Positions 1,312 through 29,885 of a stretch of DNA of 64,000 nt are shown here, one piece after another (the first letter of the stretch is position 1; each line of letters begins with the position of its first letter). The stretch is from the NCBI GenBank assembly GCA_050012475.1, contig JBEKHC010000009.1:1-64000 (forward strand), given 5' to 3'. The DNA comes from Candidatus Velthaea sp. (GTDB lineage Bacteria; Vulcanimicrobiota; Vulcanimicrobiia; Vulcanimicrobiales; Vulcanimicrobiaceae). The translations under genes and the position numbers were made by a program. The notes below the pieces were generated by a model that saw only the letters and a program-made list of their open reading frames with translations, searched no databases and was not told the DNA's origin.

Positions 1312-2795
1312 TTGCGCTCGGCGGCGCGCATTCCGCGATAGCGCGAAAAGGCCAGCCGTTCGTCTTCGAGTCCCAAGAACGTCTTGACGGTCGAACCGCG
1401 GAAGTTGAAATCAAAGATGCGCTTGATGTTGCGCGCCATGAACAGCGGATCGTGTTTCACGAGCGTCCACCAGTGGCGCGCTTTGATCCACCGCTCGGCC
1501 CTCCAGCGCATGAATTCAATCTCTTCGCCGCTGACGTTTTCGCAGGCGACGACGGACGTCGTGCCGTCGTATTCCTCGAGCCGATCGGAGGTAATGAGGC
1601 CGAGGGCGGCGAGCTGCTTGGTCATCGGCGTGCGCGGATACGGCGTCGGATGCTGAATGTAGGGCCAATCGATGAATCGCCGCGCGAACGTCAGGTTGGC
1701 CTCGATGCTTTCGCGCGTATCTTCCGGGTTGCCGACGATGAGGCCGCCAAGCACGTACATCTTATTGCGATGAAGATGTTCGATCGCGGTGAGTGCCGCA
1801 TTTCCGGCGCGCTTGCCGTTTTCGTGCTTCGTATTCTTGGACGACGCGTGGAGAAAGCTCAGGTCCGACTCGACGACGTTCTCAATGCCCAAAAACACAT
1901 AGCGAAACCCGGCCTTGCGCATCAGCGGCGCAAGCGTCTCACCGTGGTCGGCGATCGCCGACGTCATCGCCTGGACGGTGTAGTCGATCGTGTTGAGTCC
2001 GGCCTCGATGATGGCGTTGCACAAGCCTTCGAATCGTTTGATATTGAGCGTCAGGTTGTCGTCGACGATGAAGATGCTGCGCGCGCCGTGATCGCGGGCA
2101 TCCCGGATGTCGGCCAGCACGCGGTCGAAAGAAAACTTATTGAAGTTGCGGCCCCGCATCTCGATGATCGAGCAGAAACTGCAATCGAAGGTGCAGCCGC
2201 GCGACGTCTCGATGACGTCGCTTTGGCGGCCCAGCAGCGTGTAGCCGCGCAGCACGCGGCTGCGCCGCGCGGGCAACCGAATATCGGATCCTTCGAGCGT
2301 GCTCAATGCACGATCCGGGTTGTGAGCGAAGCCGGTGTCCGTGCGATACGACAGGCCGTCGATCGCAGCGTAATCGGTGCTGTTTTCGATCGCGCGCAGC
2401 AGCTCGCGAAAGGTCAGCTCACCTTCACCGCGCACGATAAAATCGATGCCGCAGGCCGGGTCGGTATACGCTTCGGTCGCGAGGCTTGGATCGTATCCGC
2501 CGACGACGAACCGCACGCTTGGACGCAGCGAACGGATGAGCTCGACAATTTTGAACGCCGTCTTGCGCTGGAAGGTCATCGTCGAAAGTCCGACCACGTC
2601 GGGCGCAAATTCATTCACCAGCCGGATGACGGTTTCACGGACGCGGCCTTGGACCAAGATGAGATCGGCAACCGCGACCCGGTGGTGCGGATCGACGTTC
2701 CCCGCCAGCGAGACCAGGGCGCCGTTGGGCATGCGCACGGCGCTGGTCGGCATGTGCTCGAACGAGTCCGGCATCGACAGAAGAAGAACATTCAC
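1302..2795 (-). CDS. B12-binding domain radical SAM protein
   Basis: N-terminal cobalamin-binding-like region (PDVVGLS, VVGGY, DFIVRGEGE) and the ETSRGCTFDCSFC CxxxCxxC motif. Confidence 0.9.
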   Translation of the reverse strand: MNVLLLSMPDSFEHMPTSAVRMPNGALVSLAGNVDPHHRVAVADLILVQGRVRETVIRLVNEFAPDVVGLSTMTFQRKTAFKIVELIRSLRPSVRFVVGGYDPSLATEAYTDPACGIDFIVRGEGELTFRELLRAIENSTDYAAIDGLSYRTDTGFAHNPDRALSTLEGSDIRLPARRSRVLRGYTLLGRQSDVIETSRGCTFDCSFCSIIEMRGRNFNKFSFDRVLADIRDARDHGARSIFIVDDNLTLNIKRFEGLCNAIIEAGLNTIDYTVQAMTSAIADHGETLAPLMRKAGFRYVFLGIENVVESDLSFLHASSKNTKHENGKRAGNAALTAIEHLHRNKMYVLGGLIVGNPEDTRESIEANLTFARRFIDWPYIQHPTPYPRTPMTKQLAALGLITSDRLEEYDGTTSVVACENVSGEEIEFMRWRAERWIKARHWWTLVKHDPLFMARNIKRIFDFNFRGSTVKTFLGLEDERLAFSRYRGMRAAERNYV

Positions 2796-2973
2796 CCGAA
2801 AATCTCCTCAACTCGAATGTGGCGCGATCGCTCATAGGCCGGCTCGCGAACGAGCCGGTCAAGTCATTGCGGCCGACCCGACCAGTGTGCCCTCTTTTGG
2901 CATTGATGTCCTTGGCGGCAACGCTTGCCCGCGATGCTGGCGAAGCGGCCGAGATGCGTGACCGCTGCGCCGT

Positions 2974-4152
2974 CTAGCGAATCGCTCCGTACGTCAACGT
3001 CCAGAAGTCCGTGTAGAGCGACGGCGGTTCGGGTGAATCGATCATGCGCTGTGTCAGCAGGATGCCGATGGTTTCCTCCGCCGGATCGGTATATGCCGAC
3101 GTGCCGAAGCCGCCGTCCCAGCCGAAGCGGCCCGGGTTGTGGAAGATCTCGTCGCGTGCGATGTCTACGCCCAGGCCCAACCCCCAGCTGCCGTACGCGC
3201 CGAAAAAGATATCGCAGCCGGCACGCTGCGCCGGCGTAAGCTGATCCGCCGTCATCAACTCGATGCTCGACCGGGAAAGGATCTGTTCGTCGCCGGCGCG
3301 GCCCTTGCCGAGCATCATGCGGCTAAAAGCAAAATAGTCATCGATCGTCGAGACCAGCCCGCCGCCGCCCGATTCGAACGGCGGCTGCCCGTACCATGCG
3401 CTGGTGCTCACGTCGTCGACGGATTGTAACCTGCCGGCGGCAGGATCGAACGCATAAAATCCGCACAGACGCGTGCGTTTTTCGGGCGGCACCTGGAAGC
3501 CGGTGTCGTGCATGCCGAGCGGCGCGAAGATGCGCTCGCGCATGAACGTGCCCAGCGATTGGCCCGAAACGCGAGCGACGAGCACGCCGAGCACATCGCT
3601 GCTGACTTGGTACATCCAGCGTTCGCCGGGCTGCGCCAGCCACGGCAACGACCCCAGCCGGCGCAGCCACTCATCGGTTTGGGGATAGTCCGTCGGCAGC
3701 ATCGGACCGTCGCCGCCGATGCGATACTCGCGAATGAACTTCTGAATCGGATAGGTGCCGGGCATGGCCATAACGCTGCCGAAGCCCATGCAGGAGGTGA
3801 GCAAGTCGCGCAGGGTAAGCGCGCGCAGTGCTGGCACCGTGTCGTCGAGCTGTGCGGAGAGCGACGTCAGCACGCGCCGATCGGCGAGTTCGGGCAGCCA
3901 GGGTTCGATCGATGCGTCGAGCCGAAGCTTGCATTCTTCCACCAGAATCATCGCTGCGACGGCCGTGACCAGCTTGGTGATCGAGGCGATGCGAAAGATC
4001 GTATCATGCCGCATCGGTTGGCCGCCGCCGGCCGCGAGCGTGCCCACGGTTTCGACGTGAACGTCGTCTTGGGCCAGCAGCGCCTGCTGCTCATCGGCCG
4101 TGAGAGCCTGCCAATCTGCCTCGGCGCCGTAGGCCAAGCACAAGTACTTCAT
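2974..4152 (-). CDS. Serine hydrolase (beta-lactamase/PBP-like family), fused to the N-terminus of a YciI-like protein
   Basis: FRIASITK (SxxK), PGERWMY, GGGLVST, FGWDGGFGT. ATG at 4152 follows an AAAGGAG RBS. The first ~30 aa (MKYLCLAYG...) look like a YciI/DGPF protein start. Confidence 0.8.
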   Translation of the reverse strand: MKYLCLAYGAEADWQALTADEQQALLAQDDVHVETVGTLAAGGGQPMRHDTIFRIASITKLVTAVAAMILVEECKLRLDASIEPWLPELADRRVLTSLSAQLDDTVPALRALTLRDLLTSCMGFGSVMAMPGTYPIQKFIREYRIGGDGPMLPTDYPQTDEWLRRLGSLPWLAQPGERWMYQVSSDVLGVLVARVSGQSLGTFMRERIFAPLGMHDTGFQVPPEKRTRLCGFYAFDPAAGRLQSVDDVSTSAWYGQPPFESGGGGLVSTIDDYFAFSRMMLGKGRAGDEQILSRSSIELMTADQLTPAQRAGCDIFFGAYGSWGLGLGVDIARDEIFHNPGRFGWDGGFGTSAYTDPAEETIGILLTQRMIDSPEPPSLYTDFWTLTYGAIR

Positions 4153-11232: not shown

Positions 11233-12540
11233 CTAGTCGCGTTCGATCATGAGTTTCAGGCTATGCGTCGCGCATGAGATACAGGGATCGTAGTTGCGAA
11301 TCGTCTGCTCGCAGCGCCAGCGAAGTTCTTCGTCGGGCAGCGTGATATTGGCCGAGACGACCCCGAGCAAATCGGCCTCGATTTGCTTTTGATTCTGCGA
11401 CGTCGGCGGCACGATGTTGGCTGCGAGAATGCGGCCTGCGGGGTCGAGGTCGTAGCGGTGATAGCACAAACCGCGCGGCGCTTCGGTCGCACCGCAGCCG
11501 TGACCGGCGCGAATCGTGATCGGAACGGACGGCGGGTCCGGCGGGACGTACGCGGCCACCAGCCGCCGGGCCTCCTCGAGCGCATACACGACCTCGAGCG
11601 CGCGCACGAGGATGCTTTTGAACGGATTGCGCACCACGCGCCCCAGCCCCGCCTCCTTTGCCAAACCTTTGACGAGCGGCGAAAGCTGATCGAAGTTGAG
11701 CGCGTAACGCGCCAGCGGACCCAGCAAGTACGGGCGATCGACGCCTTTCATCACGCCGTGCAGCGCGGTCGAGTGCGCGACGTGCTCTTCGCTGAAGATC
11801 GACTCGAATGCGGCGACGTCGAGATCGAGCCCGGTATTGGAGACGATGCGCCCGCGGTCGATCGCATATTCGGATGGATGATGAAGCGCCACGAAGACGT
11901 AGTCGTCTTCATACTCGGGGAAGGAGAAGTTGGAGAAGAAGTGGACCGTGTCGATCGCGCCGTCGAGCGCGCTTTCGAGCGGACCGTCGAGGGCGGCGAT
12001 GTCGGCCCGCGACGGCGCTTTGTAGAAGCCGCCGATGCGGGTGTTGACCGGATGCACGGCGCGGCCGCCGATCGTTTCCATCAACAGGTTGCCGACCTTC
12101 TTCACCTGCAGCGCGGACTCAACGACGCCGGGGTGGTCTTTGGCCATCTCAAAAGAATCTTGGTAGCCCAGAAAATCGGGCGCGTGCAACAGATTGGTAT
12201 GCAGCACGTGGCTTTGCACCCACTCGCCGCAATAGACCAAGCGCCGCAACGCGCGGATCGGCTCGCCGACGTTGGCGCCCAGCGCTTCTTCCATGGCGAG
12301 ACTGGCGCCCAGAATGTAGGCGATCGGACAAATGCCGCAAATGCGCGACGTGATGTCGGGTGCGTCGGTATAGGGCCGGCCGCGCAGCAGTGCCTCGAAA
12401 AAGCGAGGCGGCTCGAAGATGCGGAACGCGATGGTATCGACCTTCCCGCTCTTGACGCGGACGGTCATCGCGCCCTCGCCCTCGACGCGGGCGAGGGCGT
12501 TGACTTTGATCGTCCGGTTGCGGAGGTCATTTCCGTTCAT
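11233..12540 (-). CDS. hydA: Group 3b [NiFe] hydrogenase large (alpha) subunit
   Basis: ARVEGEG, EPPRFFE, L1 RICGIC, EAPRG, L2 YDPCISCATH plus a short C-terminal extension; ATG at 12540. Confidence 0.93.
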   Translation of the reverse strand: MNGNDLRNRTIKVNALARVEGEGAMTVRVKSGKVDTIAFRIFEPPRFFEALLRGRPYTDAPDITSRICGICPIAYILGASLAMEEALGANVGEPIRALRRLVYCGEWVQSHVLHTNLLHAPDFLGYQDSFEMAKDHPGVVESALQVKKVGNLLMETIGGRAVHPVNTRIGGFYKAPSRADIAALDGPLESALDGAIDTVHFFSNFSFPEYEDDYVFVALHHPSEYAIDRGRIVSNTGLDLDVAAFESIFSEEHVAHSTALHGVMKGVDRPYLLGPLARYALNFDQLSPLVKGLAKEAGLGRVVRNPFKSILVRALEVVYALEEARRLVAAYVPPDPPSVPITIRAGHGCGATEAPRGLCYHRYDLDPAGRILAANIVPPTSQNQKQIEADLLGVVSANITLPDEELRWRCEQTIRNYDPCISCATHSLKLMIERD

Positions 12541-13318
12541 GAGCGTCGCCTTCTTTGCGAAACGCGTCGGCGTTGGCGTTGAACGAGCGGTAGAGCTCCG
12601 CCAGCTCGCGCTCGCCCAGACCGAGCTCCTTGATCTGCTTGGTGAGGCTCGCCGTATTGGCACGTTCCTGCGGGCCAAAGCAGCCGTAACAGCCGCGGTT
12701 GTGACCCGGACAAAGGCTTCCGCATCCGGCATGCGTGACGGGACCTAGGCACGGCGTGCCGTGCGCGACCATCACGCAGACCTGGCCGCTGAGCTTGCAC
12801 TCGACGCAGACGCTGTGCGGCGAGATCAAGGGCTTGCGTTTATTGAGATACGCCGAGAGCACTTCGAGCAATTGATGCCGGTCGACCGGGCATCCGCGCA
12901 GCTCGAAATCGACTTTCACGTGATCGGCGATGGCGGTCGACGTGGCGAGGCTGTCGATGTATTCGGGCCGGGCGTACACCGCGCGCACGAAGCCGTCGAA
13001 GTCGCGGAAGTTGCGTAAGGCTTGAATTCCGCCCGACGTCGCGCAGGCGCCGATGGTGATGAGCGCGGCCGAACTGGCGCGAACCTTCTTGAGCCGTTCG
13101 ATATCATGCGCGTTGGCGATCGAGCCTTCGACGAGCGAAACGTCGTAGGGTCCATTCGATTGCGCGCGCGTGGCTTCAAGGAAATAGGCGATCTCGAACG
13201 CGCCGGCAACGGCTAAGAGTTCGTCTTCACAGTCGAGCAGGCTGAGCTGGCAGCCGTCGCACGAGGAGAATTTCCACACGGCCAGTTTGGGCCGCGTTCG
13301 GGCTTTCTTTAGGCGCAT
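12527..13318 (-). CDS. hydD: Group 3b [NiFe] hydrogenase small (delta) subunit
   Basis: KFSSCDGCQL, IGACATSGG, LRGCP, VCVECK, CLGPVTHAGC...C...RGCYGC. Confidence 0.92.
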   Translation of the reverse strand: MRLKKARTRPKLAVWKFSSCDGCQLSLLDCEDELLAVAGAFEIAYFLEATRAQSNGPYDVSLVEGSIANAHDIERLKKVRASSAALITIGACATSGGIQALRNFRDFDGFVRAVYARPEYIDSLATSTAIADHVKVDFELRGCPVDRHQLLEVLSAYLNKRKPLISPHSVCVECKLSGQVCVMVAHGTPCLGPVTHAGCGSLCPGHNRGCYGCFGPQERANTASLTKQIKELGLGERELAELYRSFNANADAFRKEGDAHERK

Positions 13319-13319
13319 G

Positions 13320-14219
13320 TCACAACTCCCGGATCGCGTAGATCTTCTCGATCGTGTCAAACCGGTAGACGGGGCCTTCCTTGCACATGAAGGTCGGGCC
13401 GAATTGGCAGTGACCGCAGAACCCGATCCCGCATTTCATGTTGCGCTCGAGCGTCACGAAAATACGATCGGTGGTCACGCCGCGATCTTGCAAGACCTGC
13501 ACGGCGGGCCGTGTCAGCGCCTCGGAACGGCACACGAACGCGACGGCATTTTCGCCGTCGAAGCGCGAAACCTTGATCGCCGCGGCGACGCTTCCGACCC
13601 GCCCGCGGTAGCCGCTGTGGGCCGTGTGCACCGTAACGTGCACTTCGAGATCGAACCGGCCGCGCCACATGTGCAGATCGCGTTCGAAGAGGATGTCGTC
13701 GGTGCCGCGCGAGCCATAGTTGATGATGACTTTGCCGTATTTTTCGCGCCGGTTCAACACTTCGTAAATGAGCGGCCGCAGCGGGGCCAGCCCGATCGTG
13801 CTGGTAATGAACACGACGTCTTTGCCGTATCCGGCCTCGACCGGCCAGGCCGATCCAAACGGCCCGCGCACCCCGATCATGGCCCCGGCGCGCAGTGCGG
13901 CCATCGCCTTGGTCACGGTGCCGACTTCGCGAATCGTATGCACGAGCGTCGTATGCTCGCGGCAGTCGCCGCTCACGCTGACCGCCACTTCACCGACGCC
14001 GGGCGCATACAGCATATTGAATTGGCCGGGCAGGAAGTTGAACGGTGCGCCGTCGAGCGGCTTGAGGTTCCAGCTGAAGCACCCCGCGACTTCGCTGCGG
14101 ACGCGTTCGATACGGAAGGGACGGGGAATCATCGGGTCGAGGTCCGGAGCGGCCCGGCGCACCGCCGGCGTGGGCGTTACGGGCTCCGCGATGGGAGTTA
14201 CGATGGTTCGGTTACGCAT
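13320..14219 (-). CDS. hydG: Sulfhydrogenase-type gamma subunit (FAD/NAD(P)-binding, [2Fe-2S])
   Basis: PGQFNML, RGPFG, LERNMKCGIGFCGHCQ...C..GPV; the NAD(P)-binding motifs are degenerate. Confidence 0.88.
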   Translation of the reverse strand: MRNRTIVTPIAEPVTPTPAVRRAAPDLDPMIPRPFRIERVRSEVAGCFSWNLKPLDGAPFNFLPGQFNMLYAPGVGEVAVSVSGDCREHTTLVHTIREVGTVTKAMAALRAGAMIGVRGPFGSAWPVEAGYGKDVVFITSTIGLAPLRPLIYEVLNRREKYGKVIINYGSRGTDDILFERDLHMWRGRFDLEVHVTVHTAHSGYRGRVGSVAAAIKVSRFDGENAVAFVCRSEALTRPAVQVLQDRGVTTDRIFVTLERNMKCGIGFCGHCQFGPTFMCKEGPVYRFDTIEKIYAIREL

Positions 14220-14665
14220 TCGACCAGCCGTTCTCGGGCGCTCGAAAGCCGGCGGGCCATCACCGGAATGAAACGTTTCATAACTTCATAACCTAAAATC
14301 GGATCGCTGGCGAAGCGCTCGCGCAATGCAGCGGCGTCGATGTCGATCAGCGACGACGGCTCGACGGCGCGCGCATCGAATCCCCAGCGGTACGGCGCGA
14401 CGAGCCATGACCAGCCGACGACGTCACCGTCGTAAACCTGCTCGACGACGATCGGGTCGCGTCCGGGCGCGTAGAGTTCGACGGCGACGAGCCCGCTCTT
14501 TACCAAATAAAAATGGTCGGCGCGATCGCCCTGCCGGAACAGCAGTTCGTCGATGCCGGCTTTGCGTTCAGCCGTGAGTTCGCCGATCGTCGCGGCGACG
14601 TTCTCGGGGACGCTCGCGAAAAAACCTTGCTCGACTAAGAGACTGGCCATGCTCGACGTGCTCAT
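14198..14665 (-). CDS. Cyclic-nucleotide-binding (Crp-like) domain protein without an HTH
   Basis: [19 protein letters not shown]...[17 protein letters not shown]; overlaps both neighbours in the operon. Confidence 0.88.
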
Positions 14666-15822
14666 GTCTTCTCCCCAGATCCCGATCCGGCCGGCGCGGC
14701 GGCTCCGGCGGCGATTGCCGCGACCTCCTCCGTGATGTCGATGCCCACCGGGCACCAGCTGATGCAGCGTCCGCATCCGACACAGCCGCTGCTGTCGAAT
14801 TGATCGTGCCAGTGTGCGAGCTTGTGTGTGAGCCACTGGCGGTAGCGCGAAGCGCCATCGCGGCGAACGCTGCCGCCGTGAATATAGCTGAATTCGAGCG
14901 TAAAACAGCTGTCCCAGCGCCGCTCGCGCCCGATGTGGTCGCCCGTAAGGTCGGTGACGTCCTCGACCGTGCTGCAGAAGCACGTGGGACAAACCAGCGT
15001 GCAGTTGGTGCAGGCCAAGCAGCGCTTGGCCACGTCGGCCCACCGCGGATGCTCGAGATTCGCCTTGAGGACGTGCTCGGCGTCGGGGTGCATCTCGCGG
15101 ACTTGGCTGGTTGCCGCTTTTTCGACCGCGGCATCGGCCGCCACGAGGTCAGCCGGCTCGGCTTGCCGCTGCGCGACGCGCGCGAGCAACGCAGCGCCAC
15201 GCTTGCTGCCGATTTCGACCACGAATTCGTGCCGGTCGTGGGTGCACAACTCGGTGAGCGCCAAATCATAGCCGGCTCGCGCCTTGGGTCCGGTCTTCAT
15301 CGAGACGCAAAAGCACGTTCCCGTCGAGCGTCCGCAATTGACCGCGATGATGAAAAGTGCGGCGCGGCGCGCCGCGTATCCGGCGTCGACGAAGGGGCCT
15401 TCGAGAAAGACGCGATCCTGGATCGCGATAGCCGCCAGTTCGCATGCGCGCACACCCAAAAGCGCGGTGGGGGGCGCCTCGATCGGCGCCGGTTCGATCG
15501 AAAACTGCGAACCTTGCCGTTCGCCTTGCCACAGCTTCTGGCGCGGGGGGAAGAGGATGCGTTTCCAGCCCTGCGGCCCCACCGTGTGCGAGAAGACCGA
15601 TTGATCCGGTCCACGGACCAGCCGGTAGCGCCCCGGCTCTTGTTCATCGAGCCATCCCGCGGGGAGGGCGTCGCCGCTTTCGAGCGTTTCGTAGACGATC
15701 GCGCCGTCGACAGCCTGGGGGCCGACTACGCGGTAACCCTCGGCCCGCAATACTTCGATGAGCGTATCCAAACCGGCCCGCTCGATGACCACGGATTGCT
15801 CGCCGATGTCCGCCTCGTGCAT
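14662..15822 (-). CDS. hydB: Sulfhydrogenase-type beta subunit (4Fe-4S dicluster)
   Basis: [45 protein letters not shown]. Confidence 0.92.
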
Positions 15823-16011
15823 CACTCTCACTTATACGCCTTTCGAGGTTCAGCGTCAGCTACATACGACGGGTTTTCCTCTTCGCACAGCGGTTCCCGG
15901 ATCGAGCGTCCGCGCGCACGGAGGCCCGCGCGGCATCGCGCTCTCTGCCGCTGCCCAACGCTACGGAAGCTGCGGCCGCGGCGCGGTCCGCTTCGGCGAC
16001 CGAGACAATTG

Positions 16012-20274: not shown

Positions 20275-20754
20275 CTTCGCAATGGTCGTGTCGTTCTCCA
20301 TGAGGGCGCGGTCGCCGGTTCGGCATCAAAGCGAGGTGACGGCTGCTTGTTTGCGCCATGAGAATCTTGTGAACCTCGGCACGCACCGTCGCCGCACCAA
20401 CCGTAGGAGCGCTGTTCGGAAGCCCCGGTTCGCTGGGCAGCCGAATGCAGCGATCGCTAACGGTCGCCCAGTCCGCTGCCCGACGTCGCGTGCTCTGTCC
20501 ATTGCTAGGCTGTATTGCACGATCGGTGAATGCGGTCAAAAGCGAGGCACGATGATGCTAATGTCGAGAAATCGAATCCAGCATACCGATGCAGTATACC
20601 GATCCTGTATGGCACCCTGCGATACATCATCCAAGTCGGGGGCAGCGCGCATTGCGTAAGTACTTGGATTTCGCAACGTTAAGTTTATTGGAGAACGTCG
20701 AGCGTTCCGCTCGCGGCCGGCGAGTCTGCCAACAAGATGCCGCGTATTTTGCCC

Positions 20755-21102
20755 TTATCGACCGAGCATTTCGACGATGCGCGCCCGAATCTCATCGAGA
20801 TGCCCGGACGAAATGTGGTAGTCGGTTTGTTTCACGATGCGCGCTTTCGAGGCAGTCGTAACGTTGTGCGCGATCGCCCAGTTTGTGCGGTCGAATCCAT
20901 TTCGTTCGTCGGGTGCGATCTGCACGCAGAGATCGCGCACTTCAAATGTTAAGGTAGTCGTACAAGGAACAACAACGACGTTTGGATATTCCTCCGCAAA
21001 CAGGCCTGAATCTTCGACTACAATAGCGGGTCGCAATTTATTTGCTTCCTTTGGGGCGGCATCTCGGCGGAAATCGACCCAAAGAATTCGGCCGGCGGTC
21101 AA
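20755..21102 (-). CDS. Type II toxin, PemK/MazF family endoribonuclease
   Basis: GRILWVDF...EANKLRPAIVV...VVVVPCTT; TTG start overlaps the antitoxin stop (TTGA). Confidence 0.88.
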   Translation of the reverse strand: MTAGRILWVDFRRDAAPKEANKLRPAIVVEDSGLFAEEYPNVVVVPCTTTLTFEVRDLCVQIAPDERNGFDRTNWAIAHNVTTASKARIVKQTDYHISSGHLDEIRARIVEMLGR

Positions 21103-21386
21103 GGCCGGCTTCCGCCTACGGTTCCTTCGTATGGTGCAATTCCCGCCCAAACGTCGGGATCTAAGCCGTCGCTTGGCTCGATATCCGTGCCCGCGGGGCT
21201 GGCCGCATGATACCGCTCCGCTGCGTCTCTGCTCTGACGCAGAATCCGCTCCCGGCGGAGCTCACGCAGCCGTTCGTCAAGAAGATCGCGAGCAAGCGTC
21301 GAGGGGCCCACGCCCCGCGCCGCCGCCTCCGCATCAAACAGTCGACGTTGCTCGCGGTCTAGTCGAATCGTCACGGTATCAGCCAC
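21099..21386 (-). CDS. Putative antitoxin (RHH/CopG-like N-terminus, acidic C-terminus)
   Basis: TVTIRLD...AAARGVGPSTLARDLL; directly upstream of and coupled to the MazF-like toxin. Confidence 0.75.
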   Translation of the reverse strand: MADTVTIRLDREQRRLFDAEAAARGVGPSTLARDLLDERLRELRRERILRQSRDAAERYHAASPAGTDIEPSDGLDPDVWAGIAPYEGTVGGSRP

Positions 21387-21392
21387 GACTCA

Positions 21393-21421
21393 ATAGTAGC
21401 ACACAGCTATGTGCGACACAA
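21393..21421 (-). promoter_or_regulatory. TA operon promoter with an inverted-repeat operator; probably leaderless
   Basis: Minus strand TTGTGT-17 bp-TACTAT; the spacer contains GCACA-N6-TGTGC; only 6 nt separate the -10 box from the GTG start. Confidence 0.6.
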
Positions 21422-21530
21422 ATGTAATCGACAAAGGTAAGCCAATAGGTCCCACCCGCACGGAGGTGGACTTCGGCAGCCGACCCCCCAGGGGGGCGCT
21501 CGCGGTAGAGTCGTGAGAGCCTACTTCCTC

Positions 21531-21562
21531 TTGTAGCCGGAAAGTGGAATTTCCGGCGATAA
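21531..21562. other. Candidate recombination site (lox-like 13-6-13 inverted repeat)
   Basis: TTGTAGCCGGAAA-GTGGAA-TTTCCGGCGATAA; arms match at 11 of 13 positions; 37 bp upstream of the recombinase ORF. Confidence 0.55.
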
Positions 21563-21599
21563 AGGGCGAGCGGAAGATGCGGGCGAAAAAAGGGCTTTC

Positions 21600-22799
21600 A
21601 TGGGAATCGATCCTCCGGTTAGCGGATTTTATGAAGGCCCGTCCCCGGACGTTGGCTCGTCCGATGCACCGGGTAGCTCGCCGGCCGTCGCGGGCTCGGA
21701 TTCGATCGCGCGGTCCGATGTTGCTGCTCTTGCCGACGTCGCTGCGTTGGGCATCGGGCACCGTCTGTTCTCGCCCTGGCCACGCGACGGCAGGCCCGCC
21801 GCGGGCGCCGACCGCATCGCCGCAGCGATCGCGACGTCCCGCAAACTCATCCAAGCCGACCGCGCTGCGCTGACGCTTGACAAATACGCCCGCGATTTCG
21901 CCTTGTTCGGCTATTGGGTCATCGCGAACCGTCCGACAAATGCGATCGTCCCGACGCACCCCGCCGTGCTCGGCATCTACATCGGCGACCTTCTCAACCA
22001 GGGTTTGTCAAAAGGCCGCGTCCTCAGCCGCATCGCCGCGGTCCAGTTCGCGAACGAGGCTCTGGGTCATAAATTGCGGATCGACGAAGGCCCGATCCAT
22101 CGCCAGATCCGCGGGTTGCGCCGGCTAACGGAGGTCGACCGCCAAGAACGCACGGCCCTACGGCAGGAAGAGGCGACATCGATCCTCGAGGAGCTCGGCC
22201 CGCCCAAAACGCTGTTCGACTATCGGGAACATGCGCTGCTTGCGCTCGGCTGGACTTCCGCGCTGCGCCGCTCGAACATCGCGCGCCTGCGAGTTCACGA
22301 TGTCAAAATTAAATACGACGCCGTCAACAGCAATCGTTACCTCGAAGTCTACGTCGCGACGAGCAAAACCGATCAAGAAGGGAGAGGTCGCTTTCTCCAA
22401 ATTACCGAGATGCCCGGAAACCACCCACTCTGCGCGGTACGCGCAATCGAAGCCTGGATCACCCGAGCGGGCATTGCCGGCGAACCAAACAGCCCACTCT
22501 TCCGCTCGTTTACACCACGAGGCTTCAAGATCAAAGCCAGCGGCATCGGCGGCCGCGATCTGAGCCTTGCCCTCAAGCGAATGGCGAAAGCAACCGGTCG
22601 CGACGAAACGAAACTTGCCGCACACGCCCTTCGCCGCGGCTTCGCCACATCCGCCGACGAAAAAGGGCTCCGCCGCTCCGTCATTCGCGAACACGGCGGC
22701 TGGAAGTCCGACGCGATGATCGATCGCTACACCCGTGTCAATGCGGCTCGCGACAACGCCATTGCCGAAATCTTTGGTCGAAAAAACGGCGGCAAATAG
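21600..22799 (+). CDS. Tyrosine recombinase/integrase, Cre-like
   Basis: Catalytic set R (ALRRSNI), K (SKTDQEG), H-x-x-R (HALRRG), W (HGGW), Y (MIDRY); helical N-terminal core-binding domain; start codon uncertain. Confidence 0.9.
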   Translation: MGIDPPVSGFYEGPSPDVGSSDAPGSSPAVAGSDSIARSDVAALADVAALGIGHRLFSPWPRDGRPAAGADRIAAAIATSRKLIQADRAALTLDKYARDFALFGYWVIANRPTNAIVPTHPAVLGIYIGDLLNQGLSKGRVLSRIAAVQFANEALGHKLRIDEGPIHRQIRGLRRLTEVDRQERTALRQEEATSILEELGPPKTLFDYREHALLALGWTSALRRSNIARLRVHDVKIKYDAVNSNRYLEVYVATSKTDQEGRGRFLQITEMPGNHPLCAVRAIEAWITRAGIAGEPNSPLFRSFTPRGFKIKASGIGGRDLSLALKRMAKATGRDETKLAAHALRRGFATSADEKGLRRSVIREHGGWKSDAMIDRYTRVNAARDNAIAEIFGRKNGGK

Positions 22800-23051
22800 G
22801 TCGTATTGCTGTCTTCTGCAAGAAGCTCGTGACGGATGCGTGGCCGCAATCGAAAGCCGCTCGATCGTGGCGTCGACCGAGGGCCCGAGTCTTCCATCGA
22901 TGAACGATTTATTCAACGATTCGGCAGCGTCCGCCGTCCTCGAGCAGGTTGCGCAATGTCCTGCTTGGTCGCGCCGGGGGCCCCGCATCGCCGCGCAAAA
23001 ACGTGCGCGCGTCGTGTCGTCGCGGTTGAACACGTAGCCGTGAATCCGACG

Positions 23052-23646
23052 TTAGCGTGTCGACGCTTCGCTCCCGCCTGGGCGTCCGATTCGCGCCCGT
23101 TCGTAGAGCGCATCGAGGTCGAGTACGTAGTCGATCGATGTAAGGACGATGGAACCACCGATGAAATCACGGGGTGCGACGAAGAGTCCCTGCGCATCAC
23201 GAACGTAGAGAATGGCCCATCGCCTGCGTGAGTCGACGACGAGATACTCTTGGATCGACGAAATCGCCTGATATTCGAGCAGCTTTGTGCCAAGATCGTC
23301 GTCCGCAGTGGGCTCGGAAAGCATCTCGATGACGAGCGACGGCCGGCGAACCTTGCGCACCTCGTCATCCGATAGATCATTCTGATCGCAGGTGACCATC
23401 AGATCCGGAGCGCGCTCGTCGTCGCTCGCGTCCGAGAGTGCGAGGGTCGAGACGGGCAGTACATCGCACCCGCGCGCCTGCACGTGACTTTGCGAGAAGA
23501 TTGCCGAGCGCGATAGCGAGGCGTTGATGGCGCTTTGTCGGTTTTGCTTGTGCGATAATCTGACCGTTCACAAACTCGAACTTTTCGTCATGCGCTTCGC
23601 CGTAGGCGAGGAAGTCGGCATAGCTAATCCGTTCGGGGTTGAGCAT
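23052..23646 (-). pseudogene. Uma2 (PD-(D/E)xK, DUF820) family endonuclease, frameshifted
   Basis: KFEFVNGQI...HQRLA / PDLMVTC...PSLVIEMLS..T...D...KL.EY; one extra A in GCAAAGT near 23490. Confidence 0.85.
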
Positions 23647-29529: not shown

Positions 29530-29885
29530 ATGGCGGTAGTCGTCGATGTTTCGATCGCGGCGAAATGGTTTCTCCCCGATGAACGTAGCCAAGCCGCTGG
29601 CACTTTGCTCGATCGCGTCTCAAAAGGCGGGGCGTACGTTCCGGCATTCTTTCGCTGGGAGTCGATGCTGCCTTGGAATCGCTGCGGGACCTGCCCATCG
29701 CCTTCGAACCTGCGGGCGACCGCTTCTTCTCCGGGAACGAAGTTCGGCTTGCACGTCACTATGACTTGACCCCTTATGATGCCGCGTATTTGTGCCTTGC
29801 GGCAAGCCGCAATATTCCGCTGGCCACAACGGATGCCGCCCTGGCTCGGGCCGCACGTGACCTCGGTCTCGTCGTTGTACCCTAA
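29530..29885 (+). pseudogene. VapC (PIN domain) toxin disrupted by an internal deletion/frameshift
   Basis: MAVVVDVSIAAKWFLPDE...FFRWE, then at ~29660 a different frame VDAALESL...LTPYDAAYL.LA...LATTD; one helix is missing. Confidence 0.8.

Follow-up and report, generated by a model that had tools for sequence, protein, structure and literature searches.

In the 64 kb stretch of DNA analysed here (the window), the Cre-like tyrosine recombinase P0001 and an inverted repeat just upstream of its gene probably form a Cre-family single-recombinase module for chromosome-dimer resolution, located at the replication terminus and replacing a lost Xer/dif system. Since no Xer/dif was found in the genome (G000) and a relative of Cre lies beside what is likely to be its own 32-base target at the terminus, this soil bacterium has probably taken over an enzyme of mobile elements for the separation of joined sister chromosomes. 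On balance, we also favour a history in which the terminus module has been exchanged at least twice within one family, the Cre-family module of the G000 lineage having been replaced again by a second Cre-family module. The features concerned are the following.

20755–21150, reverse strand: PemK/MazF-type toxin of a toxin–antitoxin pair (PF02452, E 1e-14), neighbouring gene.
21099–21386, reverse strand: probable antitoxin of 95 aa, no Pfam match, divergent from the recombinase gene, neighbouring gene.
21531–21562, no strand assigned: inverted-repeat site, 13-6-13 (or 13-8-13 at 21530–21563), proposed dif equivalent.
21563–21599, forward strand: leader of 37 bp from the site to the start codon, partly conserved in the homologous loci L033 and L034.
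21600–22799, forward strand: Cre-like tyrosine recombinase P0001, 399 aa, PF00589 match, intact.

As judged from its predicted fold, catalytic residues and sequence, P0001 is a Cre-type and not a Xer enzyme. The signatures attributed to it in an earlier note on this DNA, SKTDQ, HxLRRG, GGW and a catalytic tyrosine, are all present (the second as HALRRG, the last as Tyr377), and residues R223, K256, H342, R345, W368 and Y377, which are invariant in 23 homologues, align with the catalytic set of Cre, listed as R173, K201, H289, R292, W315 and Y324 in the part of PMC10250229 used here. All 17 sequence matches of P0001 in the PDB are Cre or Tre. With the predicted structure (mean pLDDT 75, the first 66 residues being of low confidence) as a Foldseek query, the top 11 rows were again all Cre or Tre, the best match to Cre having an E value of 5e-13, compared with 2e-7 for XerH at rank 34. 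Alignment with hhalign gave 97.8% over 276 columns for Cre versus 92.4% over 153 columns for XerD, and the NCBIfam Xer-family models scored P0001 at 19–40 bits against cut-offs of 220–371 (18.9 against 267 for the XerS profile). In two quick trees, from which XerS and XerH sequences were absent, P0001 grouped with Cre against Xer (SH-aLRT 100, Cre being a long branch) and fell into a well supported clade inside the Cre-like group and outside the Xer clade. Its identity to Cre is about 20% and that to the proteins P0002–P0010 is 68–89%, and the dN/dS ratios of its gene relative to two close homologues are 0.037 and 0.046. Contigs from RNA runs cover parts of the recombinase gene and of the toxin–antitoxin pair, which is no proof of transcription.

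The site at 21531–21562 reads TTGTAGCCGGAAA-GTGGAA-TTTCCGGCGATAA, with 13 bp arms that pair at 11 of 13 positions, including all of the inner 8 bp; in other readings the symmetry is 10/12 (12-8-12) or 10/13 (13-8-13). Its end lies 37 bp ahead of the recombinase ATG at 21600. The coordinates, arm pairing, 6 bp spacer and distance to the gene given in the earlier note are all borne out, and the absence of a second copy that it reported for the window holds for the whole 5.36 Mb assembly, in which the nearest other 32-mer has 10 mismatches. Taken alone, the repeat is not beyond chance expectation, as identical criteria return 298 repeats in the assembly, equivalent to 5.6 per 100 kb (overlapping readings counted separately), and seven matches at five places within the window. 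The site is noncoding, being overlapped by just two shadow ORFs from the recombinase region, and a sigma-70 promoter search of 20500–23200 gave no match. The exact sequence has no match in viral contigs and two in GTDB contigs, which is about the chance expectation, with no homologue of the enzyme near either. Contigs of four public runs had no joint at the site among the matches listed; since such contigs drop rare forms, this has no bearing on excision. A second inverted repeat, which is probably the toxin–antitoxin operator, lies just upstream of the antitoxin gene at 21397–21425 (degenerate), as well as at L033:1102–1136 (12/13) and at L057:7885–7906 in G291 (shorter).

It is conservation that raises the site above chance. 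Two close homologue loci, L033 and L034, were retrieved from metagenomes and none from GTDB or viral contigs, so that the comparison has n = 2; in both, the inverted repeat that was expected upstream of homologues is present at an equal distance from the gene (enzymes 87–88% identical to P0001) and with an identical spacer. The central 22 bp are identical to those of the window at 21 and all 22 positions, respectively, with 0–1 changes in a stretch whose neighbouring recombinase gene differs from its two homologues at about half (49–56%) of the synonymous sites. In an ungapped comparison, the 60 bp just upstream of the site share merely 25 and 14 identical positions, and the first 18 bp of the leader share 11 and 15. 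The arms of L034 are perfectly symmetric in the 13-8-13 reading (13/13), and those of L033 match at 10 of 13 positions. L034 has a different toxin–antitoxin pair upstream and different DNA downstream, and the downstream neighbours also differ in L033, which has the antitoxin of the window, missing from L034. The preservation of site and gene between the different flanks of L034 suggests that the two move as a unit. Homology between L034 and the window begins exactly at the left arm, and the three loci differ from one another in the outer part of the right arm. In L033 a further tyrosine-recombinase-like ORF (319 aa; 2602–3561, reverse strand) follows the homologue in convergent orientation and stops before the catalytic tyrosine region.

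Xer/dif is regarded as an ancient, vertically inherited system. A clear match to the XerD model TIGR02225 (E ≤ 3e-58) was found in 55 of 61 genomes of the family, the unpublished G238 and G246 included; the remaining six are G000, G239, G138 and G271, without a clear match, and G244 and G303, with fragments only. In genus g2, xer is found in 36 of 41 genomes, and the five without a full match comprise G117 and G219, which carry a Cre-like gene, G314 and G326, with probable xer fragments, and G285, with nothing. A dif-like 11-6-11 repeat precedes the family xer gene, mostly immediately; of the 41 g2 genomes 35 have the repeat, 34 of them in single copy (including the unpublished G322). Loci with xer and a dif-like repeat in relatives are L084, L092, L093, L095 and L118–L148. 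In all five single-contig genomes xer lies opposite dnaA, at 0.483 (G011), 0.494 (G036) and, in three more for which rounded sizes were used, about 0.47–0.50 of the genome, from which we infer that xer and its upstream repeat are the family's terminus module. Literature searches did not return this one-enzyme module of the family. In G000, none of 14 tyrosine-recombinase Pfam matches is Xer-like, the best match to the family dif-like motif has five mismatches, and neither xer nor dif was found at the position syntenic to that in relatives; FtsK with its gamma domain is encoded. The G000 assembly is 93.8% complete, 5.3% contaminated and divided into 204 contigs, so xer could be absent from it by accident. 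The P0001 module resembles that of the family in having a single gene, an upstream site with a 6 bp spacer, the same chromosomal position and a left arm ending in CGGAAA, and differs from it in that the family module, which was not found in G000, has a Xer-group enzyme and another right arm.

The window is placed in the terminus region, on a joined scaffold rather than a closed genome, by contig overlaps, by synteny with the xer/dif interval that lies opposite dnaA in relatives, and by flips of both skew and a strand-biased heptamer. Overlaps of contig ends (two exact of 122 bp, one of 160 bp at 96%) order C12 (reversed), C23, C9 (which holds the window) and C19 (reversed) into a 261 kb scaffold, the C23–C9 join being supported solely by a 122 bp overlap. 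Homologues of C12 and C19 flank xer/dif in G011; compared with G011, the interval is longer by about 156 kb in G000. The scaffold is collinear with both G291:C10 and G292:C3, and G291 independently backs the C9–C19 join. Along the joined scaffold the cumulative G−C changes by +1176, levels off at about 5–30 kb of the window and then changes by −585, with its maximum at window position 29,688, 8 kb from the site; in single-contig skew the C9 peak ranks fourth, and the joined scaffold is needed to show it well. GAAGAAG, the most strand-biased heptamer on 61 other contigs (427 versus 161), occurs 17+/8− before and 6+/14− after the site (p = 0.017), and the best-fit switch lies 12–17 kb from the site, which is within both 95% intervals. 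At the dif-like site of G011, used as a control, the heptamer counts are 13/3 before and 5/17 after, and the best-fit interval brackets the site. Because cumulative GC skew left no mark at the site in the stretches examined from G011 or G219, the heptamer was relied upon in these two genomes. Strong strand polarization of GAAGAAG, with a switch at the terminus, was seen in G000 and in five relatives; the heptamer is a candidate for a KOPS-like motif, or it may simply follow gene orientation rather than FtsK loading.

Support for a terminus role also comes from relatives in which a Cre-like gene occupies the xer position. In the phylum, 33 of 301 genomes gave a match at E ≤ 1e-20, which is strong in six genomes besides G000. 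In five of these (G239, G291, G292, G117 and G219), the enzyme is 45–49% identical to P0001 and encoded inside the thrBC/ilvD cluster, which in G011 and G215 is next to xer; the five genomes themselves yielded no xer (assemblies 88–96% complete), and the dif-like motif of the relatives is missing from all of them. The sixth, G121, has xer, dif and, on another contig, a member of the clade, and G239 has a second clade copy beside a resolvase-like ORF, which we take to be serine-resolvase-like. These two cases indicate that the clade includes mobile enzymes and does not strictly exclude Xer. G000 and the five relatives with the gene at the xer position are kin and perhaps represent two or three events.

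In the five terminus-type relatives no site was found next to the gene, within 500–1200 bp. The G219 site, TCGTACATGGAAA-ATGCAA-TTTCCAGACACGA, lies 2 kb from the gene and was spotted before any polarity analysis. That of G291, CCGTGTCCGGAAA-ATGCAA-TTTGCGGGCAATA, lies 126 kb away and was picked among 19 repeats on its contig by likeness and position, which makes it an after-the-fact choice. A pattern built from both has exactly one match each in G291, G292 and G239 and none in G000, and its reversed control has none, so that one ATGCAA-spacer site is present in four of the five relatives (G219, G291, G292 and G239). The G292 site, found blind to position, falls on the margin of the best-fit switch, with GAAGAAG counts of 11/3 before and 3/10 after; the corresponding counts are 24/3 then 6/31 in G219 and 9/0 then 6/27 in G291, and all three sites lie within about 3 kb of the switch. 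In G292 and G239 the sites are on contigs other than that of the gene, the G239 contig being too short to place. G117 has a half-site at about 684,927 of C11 (L053, L215), with the spacer and right arm of G219 and an unrelated left arm (symmetry 2/13), some 700 bp from the contig end up to which polarity is positive; an element that integrated at the terminus site of this lineage may have its junction here.

The window site has 21 of its 32 bases in common with the sites of G219 and G291, 20 with G239, 15 with G292 and 14 with G117. With a matrix made from the five relatives' sites, it ranks second of 10.7 million positions, the top scorer being internal to an ORF of 589 aa, on a contig whose polarity is uniform; with an arms-only matrix it is not among the best 12 rows. 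The orientation of its spacer along the chromosome is the same as in G291 and G292. The suggestion of an uncharacterized Cre-like recombinase with its own site thereby gains from the related sites that travel with the clade, in addition to fold, catalytic residues and site conservation. Other patterns were of less use. A 12-base arm pattern with one mismatch matched 7–23 times in each of the five relatives and was uninformative, and a 16-base pattern missed G292 and G117, its reversed control matching once in two of the five genomes. A degenerate half-site matched in 24 of 348 family genomes, mostly at scattered positions and probably by chance, and was rejected. One viral scan for the relatives' sites gave seven matches of 6–7/13 symmetry with no convincing recombinase within 3 kb, and another gave none.

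P0001 is itself, by sequence and synteny, a xenologue at a new position and not an orthologue of the terminus gene of its genus. The terminus-type gene is syntenic in the five relatives and P0001 is found elsewhere; in G000 the two genes that normally flank the genus-type gene adjoin each other with no such gene between them, and the genus-type site was not found in this genome by pattern. P0001 shows 47–49% identity to the terminus enzymes of its genus, as against 85% among those enzymes themselves, and in quick trees it groups not with these but with other subclades, including the G121 copy that coexists with xer and dif; a single clade of terminus-type and window-type enzymes was not rejected (p-AU 0.13). 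Most simply, the genus-type module would have been replaced by a related one, which arrived together with its own site.

In the proposed mechanism, each sister site would be occupied by two monomers, one per arm. FtsK translocation would juxtapose the two sites of a chromosome dimer at the septum, and a double strand exchange of the Cre type, spanning the central 6 bp, would yield two monomeric chromosomes; simple products would depend on the translocation. The site may also serve as an operator for the recombinase gene. Historically, a mobile Cre-like resolvase would have taken the place of xer in some relatives, and G000 would later have lost that gene and site and taken on a second module of the same enzyme clade. 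Several observations speak against a role in dimer resolution. A clear xer and a member of the clade are both missing from G138, G271 and G285 (assemblies 86–93% complete, that of G285 86%, in 140–350 contigs), and P0001 is not the terminus orthologue; to these are added the G117 half-site, the 12–17 kb offset of the switch, the arms-only matrix rank and the varied toxin–antitoxin neighbours.

In a rival reading the module is real but a passenger, namely a cassette for multimer resolution that a plasmid or island left stranded in a variable terminus, the chromosome relying on an unassembled xer, on the Cre-like paralogue of contig C27 or on nothing. The second intact Cre-like gene of G000 lies at the end of contig C27 (about 51.5 kb), with a canonical-type repeat, GTGGTGTTGATAA-GGGGGG-TTATCAGCACCAC (12/13; L002:1421–1452), just upstream and what is presumably a ParDE-type toxin–antitoxin pair beside it; gene and repeat are a candidate for a separate recombinase/site pair. 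Such a stranding would also agree with the changing neighbours of L034 and L033, with the xenology of P0001 to the resident clade, with the extra DNA in the interval and with the toxin–antitoxin neighbours, which differ between the loci of the module and are found beside four of five plasmid Cre-like genes examined. It is nevertheless unlikely, as the site is similar to the single sites at the termini of relatives, shares its spacer orientation with G291 and G292 and lies inside the skew plateau, and as the genus-type gene and site are both gone from G000. Moreover, Cre-loxP can replace XerCD-dif in Escherichia coli, where its action then requires directed translocation by FtsK (PMC2680272, in the part used), and by extension one would expect any Cre-type module at this place, even a passenger, to act on chromosome dimers.

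That the repeat is an operator alone, controlling the recombinase gene and never recombined, is quite improbable. Its position 37 bp before the start codon, the continuation of conservation into the leader and the lack of the motif common to active Cre-type sites would be in keeping with such a function, against which stand the distance of related sites from the gene (126 kb in G291, other contigs in G292 and G239) and the conservation of an asymmetric spacer. In addition, among distant Cre-like homologues (about 30% identity), eight of 23 loci (L010, L011, L015, L019, L020, L026, L028 and L030) have a CGATAA-N6/7-TTA-type repeat at a similar upstream place; the window site has the geometry of these repeats, with CGGAAA in place of CGATAA, and the eight loci are candidates for further recombinase/site pairs.

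The earlier note had left open a resolution site or a single att site; resolution at the terminus is favoured, and the att part fares poorly. A junction at one end of an integrated element, the other end being degenerate or unassembled, would account for the start of L034 homology exactly at the left arm, for the variable outer right arm and for the hybrid-looking half-site of G117, but it is less probable still, given that G000 has no second site, that both arms are kept despite different flanks, and that the site is missing from viral contigs and its two GTDB matches are far from homologues of the enzyme. For all the frequency of such repeats in G000, a chance palindrome is barely credible in view of the 0–1 changes in 22 bp and the perfect symmetry of L034.

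The preferred reading, a Cre-family module for dimer resolution, has a counterpart in the XerS/difSL system of streptococci and lactococci (and in XerH/difH, XerL and XerA), with one recombinase and a site immediately upstream at the terminus. There, classical XerCD and dif are absent and the site lies beside the gene at the terminus (PMC1914069; PMC5357621), and the role was argued from the same lines of evidence, namely the absence of xer, a module at the terminus and a site upstream of the gene, according to the portion of PMC1914069 used. The inner arms of the window site, GGAAA...TTTCC, resemble those of difSL and difH (PMC5357621, in part). The differences are that P0001 belongs to the Cre group, that its module is patchy within one family and that it was probably exchanged again in G000. 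With Cre/loxP, Dre, VCre, Vika, Panto, Nigri and YR1–YR12, P0001 shares the Cre fold and the six catalytic residues, and its site shares the 32–34 bp inverted repeat, the asymmetric spacer and the position close upstream of the gene; those pairs belong to plasmids or phages, unlike the chromosomal module at the terminus of a genome without xer. Active Cre-type sites have the motif G(T)-A-T(G)-A adjoining the spacer, along with a T at position 7 (PMC10250229, in part). The window site lacks both, its 13-8-13 arm ending in GGAA with G at position 7, which could reflect orthogonality or a wrong prediction of the site. Measured against the site definition in the same source (arms of 13–15 bp, 8 bp spacer, at most two mismatches, at most 1 kb from the gene), the sites of the window and L033 reach 10/13 and that of L034 13/13 in the 13-8-13 reading. 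In the sections of that paper used here, eight of 17 predicted pairs were active, and its supplementary list of about 500 pairs could include relatives of this one. In E. coli with dif::loxP and Cre, a laboratory construct, a Cre-type system at the terminus resolves chromosome dimers; the module in the window would be a natural case.

TnpS/TnpT-rst of Tn4651 and TnpI-irs also combine a tyrosine resolvase, an upstream site and an adjacent toxin–antitoxin pair (PMC7157771, in part). In the module of the window the divergent gene instead encodes the probable antitoxin of 95 aa, followed by a PemK toxin gene, and not a TnpT-sized helper, and no Tn3 transposase was seen among the listed window neighbours. 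The same MazF-type pair is found no more than 7 kb from the terminus site in G291 (C10:60,897–61,543) as well as in G000 (window 20755–21405), the recombinase gene of G291 being distant. Directly downstream of the recombinase gene, at 23052–23646 on the reverse strand, a Uma2-family nuclease gene is split across two reading frames, and 11233–15831 on the reverse strand reads like what we take to be a NiFe hydrogenase operon (large, small, flavoprotein and Fe–S subunits).

As a tool for orthogonal genome engineering, proposed earlier, P0001 and its site are a fair candidate on sequence grounds; the missing motif of active Cre-type sites can be read either way, and a chromosomal resolvase may need FtsK. 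The candidate recombinase/site pairs have arms unlike those of known Cre-type sites and include the symmetric natural site of L034.

No natural replacement of Xer by a Cre-family enzyme was found in the literature, subscription papers being mostly uncovered, and in the part of PMC8138268 used, the domestication of mobile integrases for dimer resolution is a proposal only and is argued against. If the present reading is true, a natural Cre-family replacement of Xer, with genomes from before and after within one family, would be a direct example of such domestication, and would make visible whether a domesticated Cre-type enzyme is constitutive or under FtsK control. In that case the slot of dimer resolution would be exchangeable in nature among mobile resolvases, each bringing an identifiable site of new sequence.
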